Of a DNA stretch of 64,000 nt, positions 668-2,004 are shown in pieces; position 1 is the stretch's first letter, and each line of letters begins with the position of its first letter. A program made the position numbers and the translations under genes. The DNA comes from a phage: the sequence record PZ583743.1; one strand, given 5' to 3'. The notes beneath the pieces are model-generated. The model was given only the letters and a program-made list of their open reading frames with translations. It did no database searches and was not told where the DNA came from.

Positions 668-1141
668 TCATTTTAAACTCTTTCTAAGCTGCTTCTTAAA
701 TGAAGCTATTAATTGTGTTTTAGTGTCAGATTCATTATATTCAAATCCTCTTTGAAGCATCTCAGCCATCATTTCCTCTTTTCCTAAACGAGAAAATTCC
801 TTTGATTTATCTCCAACAAAGTTAGGGTGAATATTATTTTGGGTGTAATCGGATTTTAAATAAGTAAGTAAATTTTCTAACCATTCAAGATAATCAACAC
901 CTTGTCCCTTTAAGCCAGAACGATTAAATTTATGCTTCATTTGACCTTCTGCGGCATTGCATAGATTACAAAGCAATCCACGTACCTTTCCTGCTTTTGG
1001 TCCATTTAATTCATGGTCATGATCAAGATGATTAGCTTGAACATCAGGATTTAGTTCTCGTTGGCAAATTAAGCATTTACCGTTTTGCGCATCATAAAAT
1101 TTCTGTTTTTCTTCTTTATATAATTTGCCAGTCAATAACAT
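668..1141 (-). CDS. 49: Endonuclease VII (Holliday junction resolvase)
   Basis: 157 aa; MLLTGKLYKEEKQKFYDAQNGKCLICQRELNPDVQANHLDHDH with Cys-rich zinc motif, matching T4 gp49 as remembered. Confidence 0.9.
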   Translation of the reverse strand: MLLTGKLYKEEKQKFYDAQNGKCLICQRELNPDVQANHLDHDHELNGPKAGKVRGLLCNLCNAAEGQMKHKFNRSGLKGQGVDYLEWLENLLTYLKSDYTQNNIHPNFVGDKSKEFSRLGKEEMMAEMLQRGFEYNESDTKTQLIASFKKQLRKSLK

Positions 1142-1147
1142 AATAAA

Positions 1148-1172
1148 ACCCTTACCTTAAATAGATAAGGGT
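1148..1172. terminator. Intergenic hairpin (ACCCTTA / TAAGGGT stem) with T-rich flank, upstream of gene 49
   Basis: Inverted repeat read directly in the sequence. Confidence 0.3.
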
Positions 1173-1183
1173 ATTTATTATTT

Positions 1184-1360
1184 TTAAGTATTGTAAAACA
1201 TTCGATGCAATCGTTTATACTGTCGAATCATCTTTTTAGTAGGACGAGAATAGGTTCCTACGCAAGTGGTCATATGAGGGTCCGTAGAATGTCCTTTAAT
1301 AAAAAGTTTCCAAACCTTACCGCCATTTAACTTTTCAGTATAAACCAATTCGGTTTTCAT
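1184..1360 (-). CDS. Small hypothetical protein (58 aa), gene 49.x position
   Basis: ATG at 1358-1360, stop at 1184-1186; last 14 residues (IRQYKRLHRMFYNT) duplicate the tail of the next gene; below the ORF track's 60 aa cutoff. Confidence 0.35.
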   Translation of the reverse strand: MKTELVYTEKLNGGKVWKLFIKGHSTDPHMTTCVGTYSRPTKKMIRQYKRLHRMFYNT

Positions 1361-1396
1361 TAAAATGTCCTGTCAGAAAAAGAATTTTGAGTTTTT

Positions 1397-1900
1397 TCAA
1401 GTATTGTAAAACATTTGATGCAATCGCTTATATTGCCGAATCTTTTGGTCAGAAAAAGAAATTTGAGTTTCAAGCCATTCAATGTACTCTGCGGCAGCTT
1501 GCATCAGGTTACCTTCATAGCCATCGTTATTTTCTTGCGCAGCTAATTTAGCTAATGCGTATGAAATACGTTCACCTTGAAAAGCGGCTTTAGGCTTCTG
1601 AACATCTTGGCTAGTTCTCTCTACAACTTCTTCAATTTCGCCATTTTCAACGGATTCAGTATTCCACAAACACCAGTATGTAATTGGCTTATCATAGATG
1701 TTAATAATCTTTCCGTCGGAAAGTTCAATTTCAATAATTCCAGTATCAGGTTCTATATCATCTTCACATTCTTTTGCAAGTTCACGAACTTTAAAGACAG
1801 TACCTGCACTAAGTTCCGGCCAGTAATTACATAGCCCTGTATCAACACGATTAATTCTAAACCACTTATCTACTGTAATCATGTCCCATCTCCATATCAA
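1397..1900 (-). CDS. Hypothetical protein, 167 aa (occupies the T4 pin / 49.x position)
   Basis: Track ORF; synteny between gene 49 and nrdC; function not recognised from sequence. Confidence 0.55.
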   Translation of the reverse strand: MIWRWDMITVDKWFRINRVDTGLCNYWPELSAGTVFKVRELAKECEDDIEPDTGIIEIELSDGKIINIYDKPITYWCLWNTESVENGEIEEVVERTSQDVQKPKAAFQGERISYALAKLAAQENNDGYEGNLMQAAAEYIEWLETQISFSDQKIRQYKRLHQMFYNT

Positions 1901-2004
1901 TTAAGTCATTTATTGTAGGTTCATTATATACTGTTTCTTCATCAGTGTAAACCGGTTCTTCCGGCTCTGGCTCTACAGTTTCCCATCTAACCGCCCACCA
2001 AGGT

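Follow-up and report, generated by a model that had tools for sequence, protein, structure and literature searches.

Repeats at the pin border of a T4-like phage: probable scars of a deletion fusion between the Lon inhibitor gene and its small neighbour

Two pairs of direct repeats beside the gene for the Lon inhibitor Pin in a T4-like phage are very probably scars of rearrangements at the border between two neighbouring early genes, pin and a small gene of the DUF7279 family, such that the C-terminal tail of Pin derives from a deletion fusion and the layout seen here, shared with phage RB32, combines a fused pin, a vestige of the old pin end and an intact small gene. The sequence analysed, referred to below as the window, is a stretch of 64,000 nucleotides (PZ583743.1) that is 99.9% identical to Shigella phage SF2-1 across 600-2700 and comes from a T4-like Tequatrovirus. 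Its minus-strand gene order is nrdC, 49.3, 49.2, 49.1, pin (1882-1397), a 58-aa ORF (1360-1184), gene 49 (1141-668) and nrdD, and the literature searched contained no published description of the pin/DUF7279 locus. The features of this region, all on the minus strand, are:

668..1141, minus strand: gene 49 (endonuclease VII), the downstream anchor gene
1148..1172, minus strand: conserved hairpin (10-pair stem, -14.8 kcal/mol) with the gene 49 Shine-Dalgarno, and a late-promoter-like TAATAAATA motif at its 5' edge (1148-1183)
1181..1229, minus strand: repeat A1, the native DUF7279 tail (residues 44-58, MIRQYKRLHRMFYNT) with its TAA stop and the next three bases
1184..1360, minus strand: the 58-aa DUF7279 gene (RB32 ORF078c family, phrog_3272), supported by Pfam PF23945, pN/pS, AF2 and tblastn
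1360..1394, minus strand: repeat B1 and leader, a presumed vestige of the ancestral pin 3' end (TQNSFSDRTF, stop TAA overlapping ATG) that lines up at each base with the pin end still functional in unfused phages
1394..1444, minus strand: repeat A2, Pin codons 147-161 (KIRQYKRLHQMFYNT) with the TGA stop and the next three bases, 44/49 identical to A1 and probably captured from the DUF7279 gene
1395..1401, minus strand: CTTGAAA, the A2-to-B1 junction of the rearrangement, with three extra A bases after it
1397..1882, minus strand: pin, inhibitor of the host Lon protease (PinA) in its fused 161-aa form, which relatives annotate as Pin; Pin proper spans residues 1-146 and the putatively captured tail residues 147-161
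1448..1470, minus strand: repeat B2, Pin codons ETQISFSD, the last conserved Pin-family residues ahead of the proposed fusion point

The repeats and the owner of the shared tail

The first-pass annotation of this DNA had described a segment at 1181-1228 repeated at 1394-1443, a second short repeat at 1372-1393 and 1448-1470, and a single C-terminal tail carried by two adjacent ORFs, and all of this is borne out. The copies of repeat A, 1181-1229 and 1394-1442, agree without gaps at 44 of 49 positions (spacing 213), and those of repeat B, 1372-1394 and 1448-1470, at 22 of 23 (spacing 76). Shuffling 1100-1950 200 times with dinucleotide composition preserved gave best 49-mer matches of 27.9 on average and 30 at most, and best 23-mer matches of 16.7 on average and 18 at most. 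The minus-strand ORF at 1184-1360 ends in ...KKMIRQYKRLHRMFYNT and the one that stops at 1397 ends in ...DQKIRQYKRLHQMFYNT. Read along this strand, the repeats follow each other as B2 (1470-1448), A2 (1442-1394), B1 (1394-1372), X (the body of the 58-aa ORF) and A1 (1229-1181), that is, B-A-B-X-A; a second CTTGAAA heptamer lies inside pin at 1468-1474 (-), just 5' of B2. Repeat A consists of two copies of the DUF7279 tail and repeat B of two copies of the Pin segment that codes for ...ETQ(I/N)SFSD, and an HMM scan of all ORFs of at least 30 aa in the window found no tail copy beyond the two known occurrences. The A2-to-B1 junction is present in 113 independent phage genome records, including RB32, which excludes an assembly artefact.

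The tail-bearing ORF had been given a length of 167 aa; its end stands as described, but this length reflects a mechanical TTG start, and relatives are annotated from the ATG at 1882, which yields a Pin of 161 aa. This protein belongs to the Pfam family Inhibitor_I24 (PF10465; 160.8 bits against a cutoff of 27, E 2.3e-47), with residues 4-141 aligned to positions 2-135 of the 136 in the profile. Residues 1-146 are covered by phrog_2167, and residues 147-161 match positions 44-58 of phrog_3272. The 412 nt of the window pin upstream of repeat B are 94% identical to T4 pin, and A2 is 100% identical to the T4 pin 3' end over 39 nt and matches DUF7279 positions 43-58 by HMM. Judged by sequence, the 161-aa ORF is a close orthologue of T4 PinA, which inhibits the Lon protease according to work cited in PMC8835725 (Skorupski 1988; Hilliard 1998). 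No discussion of the 15-residue tail was found in the PinA literature searched.

The 58-aa ORF is a member of DUF7279 (PF23945; 62.7 bits against a cutoff of 24.5, E 3e-17), with residues 7-56 spanning profile positions 1-53 of 53, and it matches phrog_3272 over positions 1-58 of 59 (E 3.4e-34). Homologues were found by tblastn in 370 phage records, with 117 at at least 95% identity and 62 at 90-95%, and a pN/pS against relatives of 0.11-0.36 indicates a constrained coding gene under purifying selection. The AF2 model of the protein (pLDDT 81.7) contains three beta strands and a C-terminal helix at 42-56 that corresponds to the tail, and it resembles the model of a phage S16 homologue (TM 0.75-0.80). 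That uncharacterised S16 protein was also the only match in a search of BFVD with the DUF7279 model; a Foldseek search of the PDB yielded no solved-structure match (best E 0.27), and no mention of DUF7279 was found in the literature searched. The tail motif, RPTK+xIRxxKRxHRxF, is kept in Tequatro-, Dhaka-, Gapriver-, Mosig- and Gelderlandvirus, and its invariant columns (R39, P40, T41, K42, I45, R46, K49, R50, H52, R53 and F55) are those of a basic helix. The same motif occurs in a Mosigvirus paralogue encoded upstream of pin, in phages whose Pin is without the tail, and in phages that have no pin. Since the tail lies inside the DUF7279 profile, it is native to the small ORF, and the structural model predicts that A1 encodes an integral helix of the small protein.

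Small genes of this kind take several positions around pin. The Mosigvirus paralogue (MQVKLLYRLLKNGK...) lies between 49.1 and pin (L006 306-476; L007 and L009 901-1071), and some Mosigviruses have two DUF7279 genes, one on each side of pin. In other genera, the slot right after Pin is occupied by phrog_15176 proteins (...KPTKAQIRRRKKW...; L024, L025 and L038 at ~2301-2468, L008 at 1442-1597), which have a similar basic tail, are weakly related to DUF7279 (E ~1e-5 to 1e-2) and in one case overlap pin by a 1-nt stop-start. In the RB32-type phage MLP2 (L063), a 2-nt deletion cuts the DUF7279 gene short, where a sequencing error is possible.

Arrangements of the pin border in other phages

A small ORF beside pin is an old and widespread arrangement, and its variable presence between gene 49 and pin in related phages, raised by the first-pass annotation, was confirmed by comparison, T4 itself being without it. 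Among 44 IMG/VR loci anchored on gp49 (50-100% identity), the Pin homologues of many genera end in ...LExQLxFSD(R/K)AF or nearby, and a tail-bearing Pin was found only in Tequatrovirus. Close Pin homologues in the protein database likewise form two classes, one of 161 aa (fused) and one of 148 aa (...SFSDRAF).

At the nucleotide level, the breakpoints of the different states were placed to the base. The unfused state (b) is represented by SA20RB, NiC89 and KNP1: the last residues of Pin are ...SFSDRAF, and the TAA of pin shares bases with the start ATG of the DUF7279 gene (TAATG). This state also occurs, with a shorter Pin, in Dhakavirus VR5 and Gaprivervirus RZ. In the T4-type state (a), a 161-aa Pin ends ...SFSDR|MIQQYKRLHQMFYNT and the small gene is absent. 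State (a) differs from (b) by a 137-nt deletion that runs from just after GACCGA to just before ATGATT, has no microhomology and provides the one-base frame shift needed to join the two reading frames. The RB32-type state (c), which is that of the window, consists of the fused pin, then ACTCAAAATTCTTTTTCTGACAGGACATTTTAATG, then the intact small gene. The ACTCAAAATTCTTTTTCTGACAGGACATTTTAATG segment lines up position by position with the functional 3' end of pin in state (b), TQ(I/N)SFSDR(A/T)F with its stop overlapping the ATG, which identifies B1 as a vestige of the old pin 3' end and not as the end of a cassette. In state (d), seen in PaulHMueller, Pin keeps its ...SFSDRAF end, and a clean deletion at an AAT microhomology has removed the small gene. 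State (e), found in Shigella phage CT01, is a tandem duplication that takes in the end of pin, the hairpin and gene 49 up to codon 30; its breakpoint in pin lies immediately 5' of CTTGAAACTCAA and of the CTTGAAA site used in the window junction. The duplication in CT01 creates an annotated 42-aa chimeric ORF (L011 369-497) that joins gp49 residues 1-30 to the last 12 residues of Pin.

The frequency of these states was gauged from 60 of 742 records, listed at even ranking steps, among which state (a) accounted for 19, (c) for 10, (b) for 5 and (d) or (e) together for 6. Scaled up, this amounts to ~235 records of (a), ~124 of (c), ~62 of (b) and ~74 of (d) or (e), all but the count for (c) being estimates from the even-step sample, and these values are consistent with the 113 junction records and the tblastn bands of 117 and 62.

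A tail fusion is also found in Mosigvirus, where Pin usually ends ...EYIEYLERRLS, sometimes followed by a DUF7279 gene. In the Logan contig L058 and phage vB_EcoM-ZQ3 (three records at at least 99% identity), Pin instead ends ...EYIEYLERR|FHRDFYNVY, joined at a CGTTT microhomology directly upstream of the gene 49 hairpin, so that 9 residues of the helix are kept. This Mosigvirus fusion is independent of that in Tequatrovirus. The endings of Pin thus include RAF, RRLS, a frameshifted end and the shorter Mosigvirus tail, a variety which indicates that the extreme C-terminus of Pin is evolutionarily loose. The frameshifted end is that of VIPECOOM02 (L060), in which a 1-nt deletion (possibly a sequencing error) turns the Pin end into ...FSNERFNENRINLY, running into the start region of DUF7279.

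Several further forms of the gene were seen. P0037 encodes a 191-aa read-through fusion with the upstream DUF7279 paralogue N-terminal to Pin. In the Dhakavirus JS98 type (L005 1115-1590; L019, L022 and L023), Pin is split and circularly permuted, with a 59-aa ORF for the Pin C-domain (HMM 102-149), a 100-aa ORF for the N-domain (1-79) and DUF7279 following in this order, their stops and starts overlapping; in VR5 and RZ, the 59-aa C-domain ORF alone is left. In P0030, an ENA contig of 1.5 kb, a Peptidase_S24-like (PF00717) segment is attached to Pin residues 1-83, either as a chimera or through misassembly.

Origin of the fusion and of the RB32-type layout

The series of states suggests how the fused gene could have formed. 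The ancestral arrangement had a pin ending in ...LETQISFSD(R/K)AF, with a stop that overlapped the DUF7279 start (TAATG), and a DUF7279 gene with the C-terminal helix ...PTKKMIRQYKRLHRMFYNT. In an ancestor of Tequatrovirus, a deletion of 137 nt without microhomology then probably joined Pin codon 146 in frame to DUF7279 codon 44, and its product would be the 161-aa T4-type Pin, the last 15 residues of which are the neighbour's helix. That the fusion took place by this 137-nt deletion is suggested by comparing the aligned sequences of states (a) and (b). The junction alleles, DRM in T4, DQM and DQK, differ only by single substitutions at one shared position, so a single fusion suffices to account for them. 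The first-pass annotation had proposed a small cassette inserted by short-homology recombination; the variable presence of the 58-aa ORF and the short or absent homology at the junctions agree with this proposal, but the direction is reversed, in that Pin appears to have gained its tail by deletion fusion.

The opposite reading, in which the tail originated in Pin and a mobile cassette of 58 aa entered in or beside pin, copying ~50 bp of its target, can appeal to the variable presence of the small ORF and to its absence from T4. It is nonetheless very improbable, given that the tail falls inside the DUF7279 profile and fold, that DUF7279 homologues have it away from any tail-bearing Pin, that Pin profiles stop before it, and that endonuclease, integrase and PeSL signals are absent from the segment.

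For the RB32-type layout, the slightly favoured route, to which we give roughly an even chance, is recombination between a fused-pin genome of type (a) and an unfused genome of type (b). Illegitimate recombination at or near CTTGAAA, which sits just after the stop of the tail (1401-1395) and just before B in pin (1474-1468), would have placed the vestige and the intact gene behind the fused pin. An alternative route, which is possible but doubtful, starts from a tandem duplication of [B-X-A] at the two CTTGAAA sites of an unfused genome; X would then be lost from the first copy to give the fused pin, and the T4-type would form later by recombination of A2 with A1. This route draws support from the CTTGAAA sequences that flank [B-X-A] in unfused genomes, from the tandem duplication at the same pin site in CT01, from the T4-type sequence of IMG/VR L014, which is exactly SG1 A2 plus the sequence downstream of SG1 A1, and from APTC-EC-2A and SHFML-26, where the AAAATTC (N) allele occurs in both B1 and B2. 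It requires one illegitimate event more than recombination of (a) with (b), however, and DQM and DQK, the junction alleles of state (c), look derived from the DRM of T4. In addition, the codon after B reads CGA or CAA in the fused pin and AAG or AGG in the vestige, a difference at 2-3 of its 3 positions, with 22-23 identities out of 23 within B itself.

Other observations on this step concern both routes. Neither accounts for the three A bases by which the A2-to-B1 junction exceeds what a clean CTTGAAA crossover would leave. The flanks do not tell the routes apart, as the window pin body is 94-95% identical to T4-type phages and 90.5% to SA20RB, and the window gene 49 is ~98% identical to both. 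The vestige differs from the known Tequatrovirus (b) alleles at 4 of the 7 bases just before the old stop, with SDKAF or SDRTF in place of SDRAF, so that either an unsampled donor or selection for a Shine-Dalgarno is needed. An exact-pattern scan of IMG/VR for an unfused genome with the leader allele of the window returned the ZN18 genome only, and the results of a synthetic-query BLAST for such a genome were swamped by RB32-type matches. The order of events is hard to read because alleles have been scrambled by recombination; for example, SG1 has the (c) layout with a (b)-like DUF7279 allele.

If the shared tail were a selected module, such as a helix through which both proteins bind one host target or partner, then Pin would have gained a function by capturing it and the fusion would be of the Rosetta-stone type, with Pin and DUF7279 working together. 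What speaks for such a module is that Pin has been fused in frame to the DUF7279 C-terminus twice independently (in Tequatrovirus and in Mosigvirus), that the stop-start overlap of pin with DUF7279 or with the phrog_15176 small gene is kept in several genera, and that the last tail residues, QMFYNT, are invariant among the fused Pins seen. Against this, many phages have a Pin without either the tail or DUF7279 and others have DUF7279 without pin, just 9 helix residues are left in the Mosigvirus fusion, and the Pin C-terminus tolerates each of the other endings listed above. The changes inferred in fused-Pin tails (R146Q, M147K, R149Q, H155N, R156Q and one synonymous) are replacements in 5 of 6 cases, a pattern that, for six changes only, is near the neutral expectation. 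We therefore regard the functional-module reading as improbable, and the first-pass suggestion of a selected, shared C-terminal tag finds no support in these replacements or in the ancestral and many extant Pins that do without the tail. Slightly less probable still is the more specific proposal of a functional partnership between Pin and the DUF7279 protein, in which both might act on Lon or another host factor, with the basic C-terminal helix as target-binding module and two adaptive captures; were it true, the Rosetta-stone fusions would show what an uncharacterised small protein, widespread in T-even phages, does. The AF2 model of Pin (pLDDT 64.6, with the tail below 50) is too poor to place the tail, and on the basis of this low-confidence model and the very few substitutions, A2 is probably a tolerated passenger on Pin.

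Mechanisms of other kinds were considered and rejected. PeSL-mediated shuffling, based on a promoter and stem-loop unit, has no promoter- or terminator-like site within 1181-1229, 1372-1394, 1394-1442 or 1448-1470, the nearest PeSL-like elements being a promoter-like site at 1951..1923 and the hairpin at 1172..1148. A free-standing homing endonuclease cassette (seg/mob, GIY-YIG/HNH) was dismissed because the sole ORF of the variable segment is that of the 58-aa DUF7279 protein, with no other Pfam match at E <= 1, and -1 frameshifting at the TAATG overlap because no slippery heptamer is present there.

Present roles of the locus and comparison with known systems

If the scars are read as proposed, B1 with the rest of the 34-nt vestige would be non-coding and would now act only as the leader of the small gene, including its predicted Shine-Dalgarno. 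In the window, AGGA (1368-1371) lies 7 nt upstream of the ATG of the 58-aa gene; all (c) genomes have AAGG, AGGG or AGGA 7-8 nt before the ATG, and (b) genomes have CGAGCG there. An AGG-containing Shine-Dalgarno may have been gained because stop-start translational coupling to pin was lost, and the AGG of (c) leaders fits such a need for a stand-alone Shine-Dalgarno, although an SDKAF allele in the donor is an equally possible source. The two pairs of direct repeats may also make the locus prone to deletions of 213 bp or 76 bp, which would regenerate a T4-like or an unfused state.

The hairpin region at 1172-1148, in which the Shine-Dalgarno of gene 49 is sequestered, is unchanged in every rearranged variant aligned and forms the fixed right-hand limit of all rearrangements seen. 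This hairpin (1148-1172) would be the element through which translation of gene 49 is reportedly controlled (Barth et al. 1988). A hairpin combined with a late promoter has been described as a general mechanism (PMC2988022). At the other side of the locus, just upstream of pin and inside 49.1, the region's best σ70-like site (1923-1951, minus strand; TTTACA-17-TATAAT, 11/12) fits the PeSL promoter consensus of the T4 group, TTTACW-N17-TAYWAT, with no adjoining stem-loop reported.

These results have consequences for how Pin is studied. The textbook T4 PinA of 161 aa is very probably a chimera, with a last 15 residues that are the C-terminal helix of a neighbour gene lost from T4, and structure-function work on Lon inhibition should treat Pin residues 147-161 as a foreign and probably dispensable appendage. 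The locus also provides, at one gene boundary, a natural series of unfused, fused, fused plus restored gene, clean deletion, tandem duplication and independent fusion, which is useful for studying the gain and loss of small genes in T-even phages by illegitimate recombination.

In T-even phages, adjacent genes can be fused by deletion, and in T4 deletions and duplications arise illegitimately with short or no homology. Like the deletion fusions of T4, the pin locus joins neighbouring frames in frame, with 0-7 nt of homology at the junctions and with duplication and deletion variants among close relatives. The 58-aa ORF is, like RB32 ORF078c and the RB69 orf087c-like proteins, a full-length member of Pfam DUF7279 and phrog_3272. 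In contrast, the last 15 residues of T4-type Pin are off the Inhibitor_I24 profile, and most Pins of other genera and many of Tequatrovirus do not have them. PeSLs consist of an early σ70-like promoter (TTTACW-N17-TAYWAT in the T4 group) and a stem-loop terminator (PMC2839356, PMC4122927). The pin locus resembles PeSL regions in its variable small ORFs, its location in a plastic T4-type region and its short direct repeats able to excise an ORF, but its repeats are coding sequence (a protein tail and a Pin segment) rather than a promoter and stem-loop. The pin locus thus exemplifies deletion fusion and illegitimate recombination within a plastic part of a T-even genome and is not a new kind of system.
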